Shown: positions 24,610 to 55,312 of the stretch, one piece after another
How the letters are laid out: every line of letters starts with the position of its first letter
How positions within the stretch are numbered: position 1 is the first letter of the stretch
DNA from: Rhizomicrobium sp.
GTDB lineage: Bacteria; Pseudomonadota; Alphaproteobacteria; Micropepsales; Micropepsaceae
Length of the DNA: 64,000 nucleotides
Assembly: GCA_035536115.1 (NCBI GenBank)
Contig: DATLOU010000014.1
Location: 2,937 to 66,936 of the forward strand
Reading direction: 5' to 3'
Translations under genes and position numbers: made by a program
Notes under the pieces: generated by a model
The model's input: only the letters and a program-made list of their open reading frames with translations
Told to the model about the DNA's origin: nothing
Databases searched by the model: none

Positions 24610-26691
24610 ATGTCGGCCATTAACCAGGTTACCGATTTCTCACGCGACGGAGAGATCGGCGTCATCACATTGAACTCGCCGCCGGTGAATGCGCTCTCCT
24701 TCAACGTGCGCGACGGCTTGTTCGAGGGTTTCAAGGCAGCCATCGCCGATCCCGCGATAAAGGCGATCGTCCTGATCTGCGAAGGCCGCACCTTCATCGC
24801 GGGCGCCGACATCTCCGAATTCGGCGGCGCGCAGAAAGGCGCCTCGCTCTTCGACGTTCAGAAGATGATGGAGGATTCTCCCAAGCCCGTGGTCGCGGCG
24901 ATCCACGGCACCGCTCTTGGCGGCGGGCTCGAAGTCGCGCTTTGCGCGCATTATCGCGTCGCCGTACCGAGCGCGCGCTGCGGTCTTCCGGAGGTCAATC
25001 TCGGTCTCTTGCCGGGCGCCGGCGGCACGCAGCGTTTGCCGCGCATCGCGGGCGTCGAAAAGGCGCTCGAGATGATGACGAGCGGCCAGCATGTGCCGGC
25101 CAAGGAATGTCTTGCCATGGGTCTCCTCGACGAACTCGCCGAGGAAGGCAAGCTCCGGGAAACCGCCGTCGCTTATGCGCGCAAGATCCTCGCGGAAAAC
25201 AAGCCGCTCAAGAAAGTGCGCGAGAACAATACGAAGCTCGAGGCGGCCAAGGGTCATCCGGAAATCTTTGCGAACTTCCGAAAAGCCAATGCACGCAAGT
25301 TCCGCGGTTTCAAGGCGCCCGAGGCGAACATCCAATGCATCGAAGCGGCGGTGAACCAAAGCTTCGAGGACGGCCTCAAGACCGAACGCAGGCTGTTCAT
25401 GGAATTGATGACGGGTGCGCAATCGGCGGCGCAACGCTACTACTTCTTCGCCGAGCGGCTGGCGAACAAGATTCCCGACGTGCCGGACGATACCAAGCTC
25501 ATTCCCGTCAAGAAAGTCGGCATCATCGGCGGCGGCACGATGGGCGGCGGCATCGCGATGAACTTCGCCAATGCCGGAATTCCCGTGACCATTGTCGAGG
25601 TGAAGCAGGACGCGCTCGACCGCGGACTGAAGGTCGTGCGCGGCAACTACGAGCGCAGCGCCAAGTCAGGCCGTTTCCCGATGTCGGAAGTCGATCGCCG
25701 CATGGGACTGATCGGCGGTTCCTTGAACCTCGAAGAGCTCAAGGACGTCGACCTTGTCATCGAGGCGGTATTCGAGCGCATGGACGTCAAGAAGGAGATC
25801 TTCACCAAGCTCGACGCCATCTGCAAACCAGGCGCGATCCTTGCGACCAACACATCGGGTCTCAACATCGACGAGATCGCGTCTGTGACCAAGCGGCCAG
25901 AATATGTCATCGGCCTGCACTTCTTCTCGCCTGCCAATGTGATGAAGCTGCTCGAGATCGTGCGTGCCGATCACACCTCCAAGGAAGTCATCGCCACCTG
26001 CATGAAGCTCGCCAAGACCATCGGCAAGATCGCCGTCCTGGTCGGCGTCTGCCCAGGCTTCGTCGGCAACCGCATGCTGGCGCAGCGCGGCCGCGAGGCC
26101 CAGAAGATGGTGCTCGAGGGTGCGATGCCATGGGATGTGGATCGCGTGCTCTACGATTTCGGATTTCCCATGGGCCCGTTCGCGATGAGCGATCTCGCCG
26201 GCCTCGACATCGGTTGGGTGAAGGAGAAATCGCACGGCGAGACAATCCGCGATGTCTTGTGCGAGGCGGATCGCCGCGGCCAGAAGACCGGCGCCGGCTA
26301 TTACGACTATGACGAGAACCGGACGGCGAAACCATCGCCCGTCACCGAGAGGATCATCCACGACTTCGTTTCGAAGTCGGGCAAGAACCCCCGCAAGATC
26401 GGCGACGAGGAAATCCTCGAACGCTGCATCTACCCGATGATCAACGAGGGCGCGAAGATCCTCGACGAGAAGAAGGCGATCCGGCCGTCCGATGTCGATG
26501 TGGTGTGGGTGAACGGCTATGGCTGGCCGGTCTATCGCGGCGGCCCCATGCACTACGGCGACGCCATCGGCCTCGACAAGGTGCTGGCGAAGATGAAGGA
26601 GTTCCAACGGACGATGGGCGACGCCTTCAAGCCCGCGCCGTTGCTTGAAAAGCTCGTCGCGGAGGGCAAGAAGTTCGCCGATATGCGCTAG
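24610..26691 (+). CDS. bifunctional enoyl-CoA hydratase / 3-hydroxyacyl-CoA dehydrogenase (FadB/FadJ-like)
   Basis: 693 aa with an N-terminal crotonase fold ([23 protein letters not shown]) and a central NAD-binding 3HCDH region ([14 protein letters not shown]). Confidence 0.9.
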
Positions 26692-26936
26692 GTGACCGAG
26701 TAGAAGTGGCACCAGCCCTGGGTGCTGATCTCGCCTTGGACGAGGTGACACGCATTCGGCGCGGCGAAGTGTTTGCATAGCTCGCAACGCTGATTGGCGC
26801 TGGGCTTGTCCTGATAACCGGCTTGCGTCTTCGTCAAGGTCGCAGATGCGCTCGACGACTGGCCTGCGAGAGCAAATGCGCCTGCCGTCGTGCCGGCGAA
26901 CAGCGATCGCTTCAGGAAGCTGCGGCGGGAGAACAT
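26688..26936 (-). CDS. high-potential iron-sulfur protein (HiPIP) with Tat signal
   Basis: 82 aa from the ATG at 26936. It has a twin-arginine signal, MFSRRSFLKRSLFAGTTAGAFALA. The mature part AGYQDKPSANQRCELCKHFAAPNACHLVQGEISTQGWCHFY has the spacing C-x2-C-x8-C-x12-C, including the GWC signature. Confidence 0.85.
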   Translation of the reverse strand: MFSRRSFLKRSLFAGTTAGAFALAGQSSSASATLTKTQAGYQDKPSANQRCELCKHFAAPNACHLVQGEISTQGWCHFYSVT

Positions 26937-28282
26937 CAGAAGGCCGTCCATATGAAGAGCCTGAGCGCGTCGTTGTCGCCCGCGTTGGTGCCCAATCCGT
27001 CGAAGTTCCTGCCTGCTCCGTTGAACTTTGTGTAGGCGGAGTATTGCAGGCCCACCCGCACATTGACCCATGGCCCGTAGGGCGAGGCGTCAGGCTTGCC
27101 GAACGGCGTGCCGTCGATCTGGAAGAGGAATCCCGAGCTGTCGGGCTTCTCGGTTCGGTTCGCGACATAGAGCAGAGCGTCGCGGCTACCCCAGGTATCG
27201 AAGTGCTGCACCGTCACGCCGATCGTGTTCTGCCAATAGTAGGACGCGTTCAGGACGATCTCGTTCAGATCGTCGCTGTGATTGCTGGCACCCCCCAAAA
27301 GCTCAGTCGCATCGAACGTCTCGTTCTCATGCGTGTAGCGCGCGTTCAGCGTGGCAATATGCTCGCCGGTGCCGAGAAACTGGTACGACGCGTCGATGCC
27401 GACATCGGTGAAATGATCGGAATGACCCGTGGTCTGATCGCGTCCGGGGAAAATATCGCCCAGGAAACTGAAAGCTCCGACTTCGAAATTCTGCGGGCCG
27501 TAGTCCTTTTGATAGGCGACCCGAAGATAGGGCGCGGCACCGTCGATGAGGTTCGTACCGTCGGCGCCCACGCCCACGGCGCGCAGAATTCCCTTCGAGA
27601 GCGACGTGTAGAAACCGGCTTCGGTATAGAGATCGGAATCCCACCAGGCGTAAGCGCTCGTACCGAAGACGTTGCCGTTGAACGAGCCATCGAGGACCGG
27701 TTGGGCGCTCGGCGTCGGGGCAAGTGCGCTGTCGGTGAAGGGAAAACTCCACACCGGCAAAGTCGCCCATGCATCCTGCACGGTTGGCGCGTTGTTGACC
27801 GACAGTCCAAGGATGACGTCGCTTCCCATGATGGTTTCGCGATCGACGGCACGGATATCGGAATTGTCCAGGCCCACCGAACGGCCGATGCCGTCATAGG
27901 TGATCTCGACGAAGCTTCCCAGATGATCGCCATAGCCGCCGGCGACGAGAAGCGCGATCTCGTCGATCGTGGCATTGTCGTTCACGCCGTAGTGCGGCGC
28001 AGGCGGCGCAGGTTGATCCTTCGCGGTGTGGAGGAAAGAGGCAATGGCGATGAGCGCCAGCGGCGGCGTGTATTGCACGGCGCGCAAGGTGTAGCCGCCG
28101 AGCTTGAACTGCCGTCCGAACGGAGTGAGTTGCGGACCGAAGGCGCCGATGTGGCAGGTGGAACAAGGCTGACCCGTCTGTAACGCGAATGCCGGCAGTG
28201 CTTGGGCTTGCTGAAGCGGCACACCGGCGATTGCAACGGCGGCGAATAGAGTCCAGCACAACCTTCTGAGCATGAGCGACAC
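26936..28282 (-). CDS. Cyc2-like fused monohaem cytochrome c / outer-membrane porin (candidate)
   Basis: Signal peptide ...IAGVPLQQAQA. A single CSTCH motif lies at residues 40-44 (nt 28151-28165); no Cys occurs outside the CSTCH motif except one (C9) in the signal peptide. The roughly 400-aa remainder is Cys-free with beta-barrel-like composition and ends ...RLFIWTAF. Its stop shares 1 nt with the HiPIP start. Confidence 0.6.
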   Translation of the reverse strand: MSLMLRRLCWTLFAAVAIAGVPLQQAQALPAFALQTGQPCSTCHIGAFGPQLTPFGRQFKLGGYTLRAVQYTPPLALIAIASFLHTAKDQPAPPAPHYGVNDNATIDEIALLVAGGYGDHLGSFVEITYDGIGRSVGLDNSDIRAVDRETIMGSDVILGLSVNNAPTVQDAWATLPVWSFPFTDSALAPTPSAQPVLDGSFNGNVFGTSAYAWWDSDLYTEAGFYTSLSKGILRAVGVGADGTNLIDGAAPYLRVAYQKDYGPQNFEVGAFSFLGDIFPGRDQTTGHSDHFTDVGIDASYQFLGTGEHIATLNARYTHENETFDATELLGGASNHSDDLNEIVLNASYYWQNTIGVTVQHFDTWGSRDALLYVANRTEKPDSSGFLFQIDGTPFGKPDASPYGPWVNVRVGLQYSAYTKFNGAGRNFDGLGTNAGDNDALRLFIWTAF

Positions 28283-28648
28283 TCCCTCTCTGTGCCGCGC
28301 CGGCGAGTCAACGCGCGGCCGCGCGCAGTGCGCGACCGGAGGAGTCGACTCTTCCGCTGAACGACTTTTTTTCTACTTCATGCAACGTCGATTTATTCGT
28401 TGGGCGATGGGTGTTTTTGATTTACTTGGCTATCGCGCATCACGAATGTGTCCGCCCGCGACGCTGGGAATGTTCGGCACCCGCGCTACCGACCGAATTC
28501 GACATCCCGAACGGCGGGTTTGGCTAACGGGAGCCCTCTCCCTAAGCCATTGATGACAGCGAATTTGTGTAAACCGCATTTACAGGTATAAGCATTTGTT
28601 AACACGCGGTAATCTGGAAAATGGCCCAATCCCTTGCGTGGCGGACGC

Positions 28649-28663
28649 TGGCACGGTCCTTGC
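28649..28663 (+). promoter_or_regulatory. sigma-54 (-24/-12) promoter
   Basis: cTGGCACGgtccTTGCg matches TGGCAC-N5-TTGC exactly. It lies 83 nt upstream of the GTG start at 28746. Confidence 0.5.
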
Positions 28664-28745
28664 GTATATTTTGGGGACACAGCGTAAAAACGCTGGGGTT
28701 ACGGCTTTTTTTGCCCCAGGCTGCGCGACATAGGAGATAGATTAC

Positions 28746-29507
28746 GTGAGAGCTTACATCCCGAGTTTGATCATCGCGGCCGGCATCGCCGCCTTGGCGC
28801 TCGTCGCGCCCGTTTCTGCGTCGGCGACGCCGCTGCACGGCTATTGCGTGGGTACGGCATGCCCCGACAACGGCACCAATTCGCCGACTGCGCTCAACCC
28901 GCCCGTTTTCGCGTTCTCGACCTCTGGTCAGGCCGCAACCGGTGACTTCCTCGTCGGCATTCTCGTTCCGAACGACGATCCGACGCCGGCAAGTTTCACC
29001 ATCCTGGATCACAACAACAATGCGATCACGTTTACCGCCACTCCTCTGAGCACGACCACGGCTTGGACGTCCGGCGAACTCGGCGCCTATATGGTCGCGC
29101 AAGGCTCCACCAACATTACGGGCGGCAGTGGCCATACGATCGGCGCATATCTGCCGGCGACGCAGGCTCTGGATCCTTCGGCAACAGGCTTCTGGGTGTA
29201 TGTGGCCGATCTCGGTACGCAGACGCTTCAGAGCCAGGCCGACGTCTTCAACGGCCTCGAGTTGGAACTCAACGGTCAGATGCCGCTCGGCGGCTATCTC
29301 CTGGGCTTCCTGCAAACTTGCACCGAGACCCGTCATGGACTCAGCTGCTCGTACAGCATGAACGCGAACAGCGGCGCGATCCTGGAAACCAATCCGAATT
29401 GCCCCGACTGCCACACCGAAAACGTCCCGGAACCGCTGACGCTCTCCCTCTTCGGCGTTGGATTGGCGGGTGGATTTGCGATGCGCCGTCGGCGCAAGGC
29501 CGCATAG
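28746..29507 (+). CDS. PEP-CTERM-anchored secreted protein
   Basis: Signal peptide MRAYIPSLIIAAGIAALALVAPVSASA (GTG start). The C-terminal sorting signal is VPEPLTLSLFGVGLAGGFAMRRRRKAA (PEP motif, TM helix, Arg cluster). Confidence 0.8.
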   Translation: MRAYIPSLIIAAGIAALALVAPVSASATPLHGYCVGTACPDNGTNSPTALNPPVFAFSTSGQAATGDFLVGILVPNDDPTPASFTILDHNNNAITFTATPLSTTTAWTSGELGAYMVAQGSTNITGGSGHTIGAYLPATQALDPSATGFWVYVADLGTQTLQSQADVFNGLELELNGQMPLGGYLLGFLQTCTETRHGLSCSYSMNANSGAILETNPNCPDCHTENVPEPLTLSLFGVGLAGGFAMRRRRKAA

Positions 29508-52497: not shown

Positions 52498-53363
52498 GCG
52501 GCGGCGAGCTCCAGAACTCTGCGCTCGACGACGCCTTCGTCATCCTGATCGGCGAAGACGGCAACGCTGCGCGGCGGCGACATATCGGGAAGATGATAGA
52601 CCGCGCAAACGCTGCCGGGACCTGCGCCGCTATGGCCGTACCACATTCCGAATGGACCGTCGGGATCGATCATCAAACCGGTTCCTGGAGTCGGCGTGAC
52701 GAAGGGGCGACCAGTAAGAGCATCCAGCGGTGGCGAGGCCTGCAACATCGCAGCTCTTGATTGGACGGAAAGGAAATCGCTCGTGAAGACGCGATACAGG
52801 AGCCGCGCCGCATCCAAAGCGGTGCCGACGATAAGTCCGTGATAGACCCAGTTGGGGTCGTAGGCGCCGAGATCGGCAAAGGCCAGTCGCTGCATGTCGT
52901 CGCGCTCGCGGGTCAGGAAGGCATGGATGCCGAGCGGCGCGAAGACGGTGGCATGGAGTGCCGAACCAAGTGCGGAGTCGCTGGCGCGCTCGATCTCGCG
53001 GCGCACGAAGTAATACCCGATATTGCTGTATCTCCAGGCCTGCCCCGGTTCGGACAATAAGCGATTCGCGTTGGCCCGACGCAGGAGTTCGTCGACAGGC
53101 CAGGCAGGTTCGCCTCGCGCGACCGCGGCGTGATACTCGGAAAGGCGCCCATAGTCGGTCAGACCCGCGCGATGAGCGAGGAGCTGGCGCAGCGTGTAGG
53201 GTTTTGCCTCCAGCGGTTCGTCCAATGCGAGCTTGCCTTGCTCGACGAGCCGAAAAGCGGCGATAGCGAGCACCGTCTTGCCGAAGCTCCACCACGGTAC
53301 CAGCGCATGCGGCGCACCAAAGTCGGATTCGCTGCCGCCGACGATGCGGGCCGCGAGGATCAC
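52494..53363 (-). CDS. beta-lactamase-fold serine hydrolase (class C / esterase-like) embedded in the hpn operon
   Basis: It has an SxxK motif (SFGKTVLAIAAF) and a YSNIGY (YxN-like) motif. The GTG at 53363 overlaps the shc TGA (GTGA). The ORF-track start at 53510 would overlap shc by 150 nt. Confidence 0.7.
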   Translation of the reverse strand: MILAARIVGGSESDFGAPHALVPWWSFGKTVLAIAAFRLVEQGKLALDEPLEAKPYTLRQLLAHRAGLTDYGRLSEYHAAVARGEPAWPVDELLRRANANRLLSEPGQAWRYSNIGYYFVRREIERASDSALGSALHATVFAPLGIHAFLTRERDDMQRLAFADLGAYDPNWVYHGLIVGTALDAARLLYRVFTSDFLSVQSRAAMLQASPPLDALTGRPFVTPTPGTGLMIDPDGPFGMWYGHSGAGPGSVCAVYHLPDMSPPRSVAVFADQDDEGVVERRVLELAAA

Positions 53364-55312
53364 AGCCCGTACGCGACGTGATGCGAATTGCCTGCCTTGA
53401 GATTGCGGTAGCGCGCGACCGCCCAGAGCGGGAAGAACTTGGGATAGCCGTGATAACGCAGGTAGAACACGCGCGGGAAGCCGCCACCGGTATACTGGTC
53501 CTGCGACCACAATCCGTCGGGGCCTTGCGCGGCCCTGAGATAGCGGATGCCGCGCGCCACAGCGGATGAATCGACCTCACCGGCCGCCATGAGCGCAAGC
53601 AACGCCCAGGCGGTCTGCGACGCAGTCGAAGGCGCGTGATGATAGCCGCTGTAATCCAGCCGGTAGCTCGCACAATCCTCGCCCCAGCCGCCATCTTTGT
53701 TCTGGATTTCGACGAGCCAATGCACCGCGCGCCGGATCATGGGATGGTCGTGAGCGAGCCCCGCCGCGTTCAAACCGGCCAGAGCCGACCAGGTGCCGTA
53801 GATGTAGTTGACGCCCCAACGGCCGAACCAGCTGCCATCGGCCAGCTGCGAGCGCTTTAGAAACTCGATCCCCCTGTGCACCGCAGGATGGTCCTCGGTC
53901 TCGCCAAGTTGCGCCAGCATGCCGATGCAGCGTCCGCTGACATCGTCGGTCGGTGGATCGAGCAGCGCGCCGTGATCGGCAAAGGGAATGTTGTTCAGAT
54001 AGTAGTAAACGTTGTCGGCATCGAACGCACCCCATCCCCCATTCTCGCTCTGCAAGCCTTCAACCCACTCCCGGCCGCGCGCGATTGACTCGCGATAATC
54101 GGCAAAGGGCGCGACGCGTTCCTTGGCGCGGTCGAGCGCGATGACGACCACAGCCGTATCGTCGAGGTCGGGATAGTGGGCGTTGTTGTACTGAAAGGCC
54201 CAGCCGCCCGGGCGCACGTTCGGCCGCTCTTCCGCCCAATCGCCTTTCACGTCGAGAACCTGCCGCGTCTTCAGCCATTCGAGACTCTTTGCCACCGCGG
54301 CGTCAGCCGCGTCGTCTCTGAGTTCCATCAACGCCAGCGCCGCAAGCGCGGTGTCCCACACCGGAGACACGCAAGGCTGGCAGTAGGCCTCGTCATTCTT
54401 GATGACGAGGAGCCGCTCGACCGACTGGCGCGCAATCGCGCGATTGGGGTCGTTCGCTGAGACTCCCAACGCGTCGAACATCATCACGCTGTTTGCCATC
54501 GCTGGATAGATGGCGCCGAGTCCATCCTCGCCGTTGAGCCGTTCGATGGTCCATGCCTTGCACCTGTCGATGGCGCGTTGACGCAATCCCTTGGGCCAAT
54601 AAGGTTCGAAACGCTTGAGCAACCAGTCGAGCGCGGCGAAGAAGGCGGACCAGCCCACGCTTTGATGCGGTGCGCGCGGGCCGATCACGGGCACGCCGGC
54701 AACGAAGAGTTCCGGGACATGCACATTGCGCGGATTTCTCGCGACCGGCTTCAAGGCCGCCAGCACCAGCAGCGGCACGATCACGGTGCGCGCCCAATAA
54801 CTCATCTTGGAGAGATGAATGGGAAACCAGCGCGGCAAGAGAATGAGTTCGACCGGCACCGTCGGGACGTTCTTCCATTCCGTTTCGCCATAAAGCGCGA
54901 GCAGAATGCGCGTGAAGACGTTCGTCTTGATCGCGCCGCCCCGCTCGCGGATGGCGTCGCGGGCTCGCGTCATGTGCGCAGCGTCACTGTCGTCGCCGAT
55001 CATCTTGAGGGCGAAATAGGCCTTGACGGTCGCCGAGATGTCGAACGGGCCGCCATGATAGAGCGGCCAACCGCCATGGCTGCCCTGAATGCGGCGGAGA
55101 TAGTTGCCGATCTTCGTTTCGAGCTCCAGGTTCGGCGTCTCTGCCAGATAGTGAACCAGGAGGACATATTCGGACGGAATGGTCGCGTCGGCTTCGAGCT
55201 CGAACACCCAATGACCGTCCTCGCGCTGCAGCTTCAAGAGCGCGGCGGTGGCCTCGCCGAGCACTTTGTCGACAAAGACGGTGCTTTCATGTTCGCTGGC
55301 CAGCTGGTTCAT
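53360..55312 (-). CDS. shc: squalene-hopene cyclase
   Basis: 650 aa with the catalytic DxDDTA motif (PDLDDTAVVVIAL) and multiple QW repeats (e.g. LQSENGGWG, IQNKDGGWGE, QLADGSWFGRWG). Confidence 0.95.
   Translation of the reverse strand: MNQLASEHESTVFVDKVLGEATAALLKLQREDGHWVFELEADATIPSEYVLLVHYLAETPNLELETKIGNYLRRIQGSHGGWPLYHGGPFDISATVKAYFALKMIGDDSDAAHMTRARDAIRERGGAIKTNVFTRILLALYGETEWKNVPTVPVELILLPRWFPIHLSKMSYWARTVIVPLLVLAALKPVARNPRNVHVPELFVAGVPVIGPRAPHQSVGWSAFFAALDWLLKRFEPYWPKGLRQRAIDRCKAWTIERLNGEDGLGAIYPAMANSVMMFDALGVSANDPNRAIARQSVERLLVIKNDEAYCQPCVSPVWDTALAALALMELRDDAADAAVAKSLEWLKTRQVLDVKGDWAEERPNVRPGGWAFQYNNAHYPDLDDTAVVVIALDRAKERVAPFADYRESIARGREWVEGLQSENGGWGAFDADNVYYYLNNIPFADHGALLDPPTDDVSGRCIGMLAQLGETEDHPAVHRGIEFLKRSQLADGSWFGRWGVNYIYGTWSALAGLNAAGLAHDHPMIRRAVHWLVEIQNKDGGWGEDCASYRLDYSGYHHAPSTASQTAWALLALMAAGEVDSSAVARGIRYLRAAQGPDGLWSQDQYTGGGFPRVFYLRYHGYPKFFPLWAVARYRNLKAGNSHHVAYGL

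Follow-up and report, generated by a model that had tools for sequence, protein, structure and literature searches.

The question raised by this locus was whether a pair of overlapping genes in Rhizomicrobium sp. encodes a conduit that carries electrons across the outer membrane, as a reading of the sequence alone had proposed. The pair lies on the minus strand of a 64,000-nucleotide stretch of contig DATLOU010000014.1 (positions 2,937 to 66,936; here called the window) and consists of a gene for a porin with an N-terminal haem c motif and a gene for a small iron-sulfur protein of the high-potential type (HiPIP). The sequence-only reading had described them as a Cyc2-like fused monohaem cytochrome-porin coupled to a PioC/Iro-like HiPIP, and the coordinates, lengths, motifs and start and stop overlaps given in that description all held when the sequence was re-read. 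Our analysis suggested that the two genes form an operon for a Cyc2-type electron conduit leading from outer membrane to periplasm, with Fe(II) as the most likely reductant, and we give this a probability of roughly 0.6. Coordinates of all features are collected in Table 1.

The porin contains cysteine only at positions 9, 40 and 43 of its 448-amino-acid form; the first of these lies in the signal peptide, and the CSTCH motif holds the sole cysteines of the mature protein. On inspection only, the signal peptide has a positively charged, hydrophobic N-terminus and ends ...QQAQA before LP, while the protein itself ends ...LRLFIWTAF with a final phenylalanine. The signal peptide, the single CSTCH after the cleavage site, the cysteine-free remainder and this C-terminus were all present as first described. 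An AlphaFold model, for which an alignment of 119 homologues served as input, reached a predicted local distance difference test score (pLDDT) of 90.9 and a predicted TM-score (pTM) of 0.86. In this model, residues 2-19 form a helix ahead of the mature domain, which begins with short helices around the haem motif and continues into 16 strands as assigned by DSSP. Foldseek searches of the PDB matched 16-strand porins, with the top query TM-score for OprP (2o4v, 0.50), 0.47 for OprO (4rjw), and E 4e-10 for OmpT and Omp32. The confident 16-strand model, with OprP and OprO among its matches, bore out the barrel first proposed from the letters, and modelling thus supports a fused monohaem cytochrome-porin architecture. 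The signal peptide and the barrel with its C-terminal phenylalanine together predict an outer-membrane location. A porin of the MtrB/PioB type was ruled out by the 16 strands and the fused haem.

The N-terminal PAFALQTGQPCSTCH block of the porin matches the Cyc2 motif pattern, with P, F, A, Q and T retained. Among the 119 homologues, C43 and H44 were invariant and C40 was at least 90% conserved, and in a 135-sequence alignment of the superfamily C40, C43 and H44 were 100% conserved, so that the CXXCH motif held up among relatives as the earlier proposal needed it to. In the same alignment P30, Q35 and T36 were 95-98% conserved, and the full set of P30, Q35, T36, G37, C40, C43, H44, P50, L52, G56, F59 and K60 was 91-100% conserved across the superfamily; all of these residues, and many barrel positions, are kept in the window porin.

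The relation to Cyc2 was examined in a superfamily with at least 2565 homologues of the porin; an exhaustive profile search collected 3556 representatives (50% identity), and 644 of these reached E <= 1e-30. Motif counts were made on the 131 representatives among those listed in which the motif was readable, and for the clade of the window porin on its 118 closest homologues. The screen of Keffer et al. (PMC8406198) asks for a length of at least 365 amino acids, a CXXCH and an upstream PXFAR[Q/K][T/Y], and these authors described Cyc2 as a protein that carries a signal peptide and one CXXCH, is predicted to have 16 strands and is structurally homologous to OprO and OprP. The window porin has the length (445-448 amino acids), the single N-terminal CXXCH (CSTCH at 40-44) and, by AlphaFold and Foldseek, an OprO/OprP-like 16-strand barrel; its motif reads PAFALQT, with leucine for arginine, and does not fit the strict pattern. 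The motif arginine was present in 100 of the 131 representatives and the strict PXFAR[Q/K][T/Y] in 68, and the strict-motif representatives matched the window profile over its full length at E 1e-79 to 1e-149. Cyc2 clusters are mutually only 17-30% identical. The claim of a Cyc2-type architecture stood on the barrel model, the OprP/OprO matches, the PAFALQTGQPCSTCH block and the full-length homology to strict-motif proteins. On sequence grounds we call the window porin Cyc2-like: it belongs to the same superfamily, within an arginine-less variant clade, and does not pass the published Cyc2 screen; the label "Cyc2-like variant" was chosen because the motif arginine is lost in its clade.

Searches of plasmids by tblastn returned homologues on Ralstonia megaplasmids (34% identity, E 7e-64, with the strict motif VPAFARQTG..C..CH) and on pACRY03 of Acidiphilium cryptum (34% identity, E 3e-61), and further plasmid homologues in Paraburkholderia, Caballeronia, Methylocystis and Ideonella. 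Ralstonia, Burkholderia and Xanthomonas were among the genera that Keffer et al. (PMC8406198) found to be rich in Cyc2 homologues. The nearest named relatives of the Acidiphilium porin homologue were from Acetobacteraceae, a family whose homologues (Acidocella, Acidibrevibacterium and others) were termed Cyc2 in PMC10715153. The records CP084173.1 (A. ferrooxidans) and NC_009469.1 (A. cryptum pACRY03) gave identical match statistics (34.1% identity, 223 bits), each beside a transposase, which suggests either transfer between co-occurring acidophiles or a mis-assigned record. Ten strict-motif representatives carried no source name other than "cytochrome C" or "hypothetical protein", and no Pfam or NCBIfam model for the porin superfamily matched the window porin or ten relatives. 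A sequence search of the PDB with the porin gave no match. The Acidiphilium and Ideonella homologues, used as queries for protein searches, matched no named iron oxidiser in listings filled by close relatives, and full-text literature searches with Cyc2 motif peptides returned noise from optical character recognition only.

The second gene product is supported as a PioC/Iro-like HiPIP, with predicted export by the twin-arginine translocation (Tat) pathway. The SRRSFLK signal, the cysteine signature and the GWC of the earlier description were all found, and the likeness to PioC and Iro was recovered through a solved structure and a family profile. Among solved structures, PioC of R. palustris TIE-1 (6XYV) is its closest relative, aligned over 44 residues at E 9e-10 with matching cysteine spacing, and Tat cleavage between ASA and T would leave a mature protein of about 50 amino acids, the size of PioC. 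The NCBIfam profile NF041615 (Iro) matched residues 3-78 to profile positions 9-84 at E 2e-14 and 53.6 bits; because this is below the equivalog cut-off of 100, the protein is not an Iro orthologue. The Pfam HIPIP model (PF01355) gave the window protein 19.3 bits at a cut-off of 22, and the neighbour-type HiPIP of locus L034 24.3 bits. Among 34 porin-adjacent HiPIPs, taken from 33 related genomes and the window's own contig, the spacing C-x2-C-x8-C-x12-C was present in all 34 and the twin-arginine motif in 31.

The pairing of the porin with a carrier recurred in related genomes. A scan of one genome per species found a relative of the porin in more than 583 species, and the neighbourhood census covered the best 80 of these, at 43-60% identity, from Rhizomicrobium, Caulobacterales, Sphingomonadales, Rudaea and a few other Gammaproteobacteria. 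A HiPIP adjoined the porin in 38 of the 80, which answered whether homologues conserve this neighbour, and monohaem class I cytochromes c and cupredoxins were the other carriers found beside the porin (Table 1). The HiPIP gene was mostly upstream of the porin gene on the same strand, and downstream in several loci, as in the window. The possibility that the HiPIP is a chance neighbour was ruled out by this census. In one Sphingomicrobium metagenome-assembled genome (MAG), genes for a HiPIP, the porin, COX2, COX1 and a cytochrome c are clustered on a single strand (L064, 4678-9711) and form a compact respiratory module of the rus-operon kind; the order of the rus operon is cyc2-cyc1-cox-rus, parallel to this layout. 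A second Sphingomicrobium locus (L056, 2230-4702) encoded a HiPIP, the porin and an open reading frame (ORF) resembling subunit II in its CuA motif only. Distant homologues in Ideonella and Methylocystis were followed by one and three larger c-type cytochromes, respectively, of about 205-217 amino acids, a size that suggests dihaem c4-type proteins. The cupredoxin genes lay at 4474-4809 of L003, 6271-6594 of L012, 3757-4092 of L014, about 6650-6993 of L018 and 1609-1953 of L030; some of these loci also had a HiPIP, and the arrangement resembles the role of rusticyanin in A. ferrooxidans.

The pair was also stable within its own lineage. Nine soil-metagenome copies of the locus, eight found via an identical neighbouring SDR protein and one via the porin, had the PEP-CTERM gene, porin, HiPIP and fadB in the same order. 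Relative to the window, these nine copies together showed 20 synonymous and 1 non-synonymous differences in the porin gene and 10 synonymous and 1 non-synonymous in the HiPIP gene, counted per copy so that shared variants were counted repeatedly. As almost all differences were synonymous, the pair is under purifying selection. The guanine-plus-cytosine (GC) content of the operon was 61-62%, compared with 62.3% for the window. The kept layout, the synonymous differences and the unremarkable GC content indicated that the pair is a fixed, selected part of the lineage. The idea of a recent horizontal insertion was rejected on the ordinary GC content and the identical layout in the nine copies. The sequence-only reading had suggested a tightly packed or recently juxtaposed accessory pair; the recent juxtaposition was not supported, given nine fixed copies and no GC anomaly.

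In the mechanism that we propose, the large protein would be exported by Sec, haem would be attached covalently at CSTCH in the periplasm, and the protein would insert in the outer membrane as a 16-strand barrel with its haem domain of about 45 residues at or in the periplasmic mouth. A reductant reaching the pore, most likely Fe(II), would reduce the haem, which would hand the electron on to the HiPIP of PioC type, co-translated and exported by Tat (about 50 amino acids when mature). The HiPIP would in turn deliver it to a high-potential acceptor in the inner membrane, probably a haem-copper oxidase. The main argument for inward flow was that the porin gene is consistently accompanied by a gene for a soluble one-electron carrier of high potential and, in one relative, by a complete oxidase; HiPIP, cytochrome c and cupredoxin are all high-potential and therefore fit flow towards oxidases. 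Fe(II) was the best-supported substrate because the three members of the family named as biochemically verified in the literature consulted, A. ferrooxidans Cyc2, Cyt572 and Cyc2PV-1, all oxidise Fe(II), and because PioC and Iro are tied to iron oxidation.

Several observations weigh against a Cyc2-type conduit fed by Fe(II). The motif arginine was present in none of the 118 closest homologues, which had V, E, D, Q, A, L or I in its place, and kinship to biochemically verified Cyc2 runs indirectly, via the strict-motif proteins. The function of distant Cyc2 homologues is itself unverified according to published authors, including He et al. 2017 (PMC5566968). The hosts (Rhizomicrobium, Caulobacterales and Sphingomonadales) are not known iron oxidisers, and no oxidase, bc1 or carbon-fixation genes were found near the operon in the window. 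About 16 of the 80 relatives had no adjacent carrier, 4 of these having lost the flank at a contig end. At residue 78 (nucleotides 28049-28051) the window porin has isoleucine; in its clade methionine occupies this position in at least 90% of members, and in the superfamily in 69%. The mature window porin has a single methionine (M152), and the 135-sequence alignment contained no distal histidine or methionine conserved across the superfamily. The isoleucine could matter if Met78 is a haem ligand in the relatives, in which case this lineage might carry a differently ligated haem.

Since the hosts are soil heterotrophs, the same conduit might instead oxidise another extracellular donor, such as Mn(II), Cu(I) or reduced humic substances, or might oxidise Fe(II)-organic complexes for detoxification without energy gain. 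In Ca. Manganitrophus, the first step of Mn(II) oxidation has been proposed to be the work of a Cyc2 homologue, clusters 2 and 3 were said to be of uncertain function, and He et al. (PMC5566968) considered that Cyc2 may act in forms of extracellular electron transfer different from Fe(II) oxidation in bacteria that are not iron oxidisers. However, the three verified proteins all act on Fe(II), PioC/Iro-type HiPIPs are tied to iron oxidation, and Mn(II) oxidation requires potentials above those of known neutrophile HiPIPs (50-450 mV); we consider another donor unlikely. Still less probable is outward flow, in which the HiPIP would donate to the haem porin and the porin would reduce extracellular Fe(III) or another oxidant. 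Homologues in the Fe(III)-reducing Acidiphilium and Acidocella are consistent with such a direction, as is the link of Cyc2B of A. ferrooxidans to ferric iron reduction (PMC10715153), but the carriers (HiPIP, class I cytochrome c, cupredoxin) have high potentials, which makes them poor donors to Fe(III) minerals at neutral pH, and in L064 the operon HiPIP-porin-COX2-COX1 indicates that the electrons end on oxygen. That the protein is an ordinary diffusion porin, with a non-functional or structural CXXCH and a coincidental HiPIP neighbour, is very improbable: the lack of a Pfam or NCBIfam match, the general porins among its structural matches and the relatives in which no adjacent carrier was detected would fit, but CXXCH and its flanking block (P30, Q35, T36, G37, P50, L52, G56, F59 and K60) are conserved throughout the 135 members, about 80% of the genomes have a carrier gene beside the porin gene, frequently with a stop/start overlap, and the pair is under purifying selection.

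Beyond the preferred reading of the window as an inward, Fe(II)-fed conduit, we propose more tentatively, as possible rather than probable, that the porin belongs to a large, overlooked, arginine-less Cyc2-like clade, spread widely among soil and freshwater heterotrophs of the Alphaproteobacteria (Rhizomicrobium, Caulobacterales, Sphingomonadales) and found in some Gammaproteobacteria, with interchangeable carriers (PioC-type HiPIP, cytochrome c, cupredoxin) and sometimes in an operon with a haem-copper oxidase. With the arginine replaced throughout, the Keffer motif screen would have discarded the sequences of this clade. He et al. 2017 (PMC5566968) reported Cyc2 homologues in many bacteria, R. 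palustris strains among them, for which iron oxidation is not known. Distant homologues in organisms of this kind are an acknowledged open problem. Our literature search found no description of the minimal two-gene form, of the arginine-less clade, of its breadth in Rhizomicrobium, Caulobacterales and Sphingomonadales, or of natural swapping of HiPIP, cytochrome c and cupredoxin partners, and nothing specific on Cyc2 in the host groups. As a marker gene for neutrophilic iron oxidation, Cyc2 is the leading candidate; should the module be active, surveys screened by motif undercount the iron-oxidising potential of soils, and facultative oxidation of Fe(II) or other metals, or electron uptake, could be common and unrecognised in ordinary soil heterotrophs. 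The locus and its relatives offer a compact, testable system of one fused haem porin and one small, naturally swapped carrier. Cultured carriers (Novosphingobium sp. FSW06-99, Novosphingobium malaysiense, Polymorphobacter arshaanensis and P. megasporae) make its function genetically testable.

The borders of the two genes were read as follows. The porin gene more likely starts at ATG 28273 than at GTG 28282; the ATG was favoured because the GGGAG overlaps the GTG, and the shorter, 445-amino-acid form was also the call of gene callers on identical metagenome contigs. The porin gene ends in TGA (26936-26938), whose A is also the first letter of the ATG (26936) that opens the 82-amino-acid HiPIP ORF. 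Gene callers begin the HiPIP at ATG 26951, which gives 87 amino acids and a 16-nucleotide overlap, and the two genes thus overlap under either start. The CTAG at the far end of the HiPIP gene holds both its stop (TAG 26690-26688, minus strand) and that of the convergent fadB-like gene (TAG 26689-26691, plus strand), and a terminator scan of this junction found no site above chance. A promoter scan of the divergent intergenic region gave no match to the sigma-70 consensus above chance, no Rfam match was found in the 64-kb window, and no multihaem ORF in its 24-31 kb section. Between 7 and 11 Rhizomicrobium-type loci (L002, L006, L013, L025 and others) had the porin gene followed by etfB, etfA and a 3-hydroxyacyl-CoA dehydrogenase gene, and this recurring fatty-acid-oxidation context, like the fadB-like gene of the window, is probably inherited synteny. 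The PEP-CTERM gene on the other side was kept beside the operon in all nine soil-metagenome copies. Its product has CPDCH directly before the PEP-CTERM anchor (NPNCPDCHTENVPEP), which might be a merely coincidental CXXCH, or might bind haem on a surface protein beside the conduit. Elsewhere in the window, EttA, MetH and nitronate monooxygenase fell in 90%-identity clusters with proteins of Rhizomicrobium sp. MAGs, and the hopanoid genes named in the sequence-only reading were present as a cluster at 43272-63920, with a squalene-hopene cyclase-like ORF at 53360-55312 and its neighbours.

Table 1. Features of the porin-HiPIP locus in the window, and carrier genes found beside the porin gene in the 80 related loci of the census.
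Feature	Position or count	Strand	Details and basis
fadB-like gene, convergent neighbour	24610-26691	+	Pfam ECH and 3HCDH domains
Overlapping-stop CTAG	26688-26691	both	Sequence reading; overlap the same on other metagenome copies
Putative PioC/Iro-type small HiPIP gene	26688-26936	-	82 amino acids; overlaps porin-gene stop
Cluster cysteines C51, C54, C63, C76	26709-26786	-	C-x2-C-x8-C-x12-C with GWC
Twin-arginine signal SRRSFLK	26910-26930	-	TIGR01409 TAT_signal_seq, 18.2 bits, above cut-off of 16.7
Cyc2-like fused monohaem cytochrome-porin gene	26936-28282	-	448 amino acids from GTG 28282; 445 from ATG 28273
Predicted 16-strand beta-barrel porin domain	26942-28060	-	Residues 75-447, cysteine-free, C-terminal Phe; DSSP on AlphaFold model
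Haem c attachment motif CSTCH	28151-28165	-	Residues 40-44 (448-amino-acid numbering)
PAFALQT, Cyc2-type PXFAR[Q/K][T/Y] with Leu for Arg	28175-28195	-	Sequence; motif from Keffer et al.
Predicted Sec-type signal peptide (MLRRLCWTLFAAVAIAGVPLQQAQA)	28199-28273	-	Cleavage between AQA and LP, before LPAF; sequence inspection
Shine-Dalgarno GGGAG	28286-28282	-	8 nucleotides 5' of ATG 28273; sequence reading
Divergent intergenic region, operon versus PEP-CTERM gene	28283-28745		GC 55%; presumed promoter region
PEP-CTERM protein gene, divergent neighbour	28746-29507	+	253 amino acids; Pfam PF07589, E 7.6e-07
HiPIP adjoining porin	38/80 loci		36 PioC-type, same C-x2-C-x8-C-x12-C spacing; two of classical type in Rudaea
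Monohaem class I cytochrome c adjoining porin	29/80 loci		About 125-131 amino acids; stop/start overlap frequent
Plastocyanin/azurin-type cupredoxin adjoining porin	5-6/80 loci		Pfam PF00127, E 2e-11
At least one carrier adjoining porin	about 64/80 loci		About 80%

The window locus shares parts with several known systems. OprP/OprO and the general 16-strand porins resemble the window porin in barrel fold (query TM-scores of 0.47-0.50), but are about 10% identical to it and have neither a haem domain nor a redox partner. PioABC of Rhodopseudomonas palustris TIE-1 and MtoAB offer an outer-membrane conduit encoded with a small Tat-exported HiPIP, as in the window; however, they place a separate decahaem cytochrome inside a much larger porin of more than 20 strands, whereas the window porin has one putative haem fused to a predicted 16-strand barrel, and the locus does not belong to the PioAB/MtoAB type. 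Iro, the HiPIP "iron oxidase" of A. ferrooxidans, is matched over its full length by the window HiPIP and likewise has a Tat signal, but iro lies downstream of the pet operon with its cytochrome b/b6 gene and not beside cyc2, while the window HiPIP gene lies beside the porin gene.

The earlier proposal left it undecided whether a pairing of Cyc2 with a HiPIP had been described before, and it had: He et al. 2017 (PMC5566968) report, for a Bradyrhizobium sp. obtained from an enrichment that oxidised pyrite (Percak-Dennett 2017), that its Cyc2 gene forms a cluster with a HiPIP gene and three genes for cytochromes c. In principle, then, such a pairing is not new. As described there, the Bradyrhizobium cluster shares with the window an alphaproteobacterial Cyc2 homologue, a HiPIP and a proposed inward relay, and differs in its three periplasmic cytochromes c (homologues of Cyc1 and CycA1), the window having two genes only.

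In architecture the window porin is also close to Cyc2 itself (A. ferrooxidans Cyc2, Mariprofundus Cyc2PV-1 and Leptospirillum Cyt572; McAllister 2020, Keffer 2021), judged by published description and by the strict-motif relatives. Cyc2 has a signal peptide and then a single N-terminal CXXCH after a PxFAxQT block, as the window porin does, and the two are alike in size (about 440 amino acids), in the predicted 16-strand OprO/OprP-like barrel and in an adjoining gene for a periplasmic carrier. In A. ferrooxidans and Ferrovum, cyc1 directly follows cyc2, and the porin genes of Ideonella and Methylocystis are similarly followed by their cytochromes. The window differs from Cyc2 in the replaced motif arginine (by Leu here, and by V, E, D, Q or A in the clade), in its partner, a HiPIP in place of the dihaem c4 Cyc1, and in its host, a soil heterotroph of the Rhizomicrobium type.

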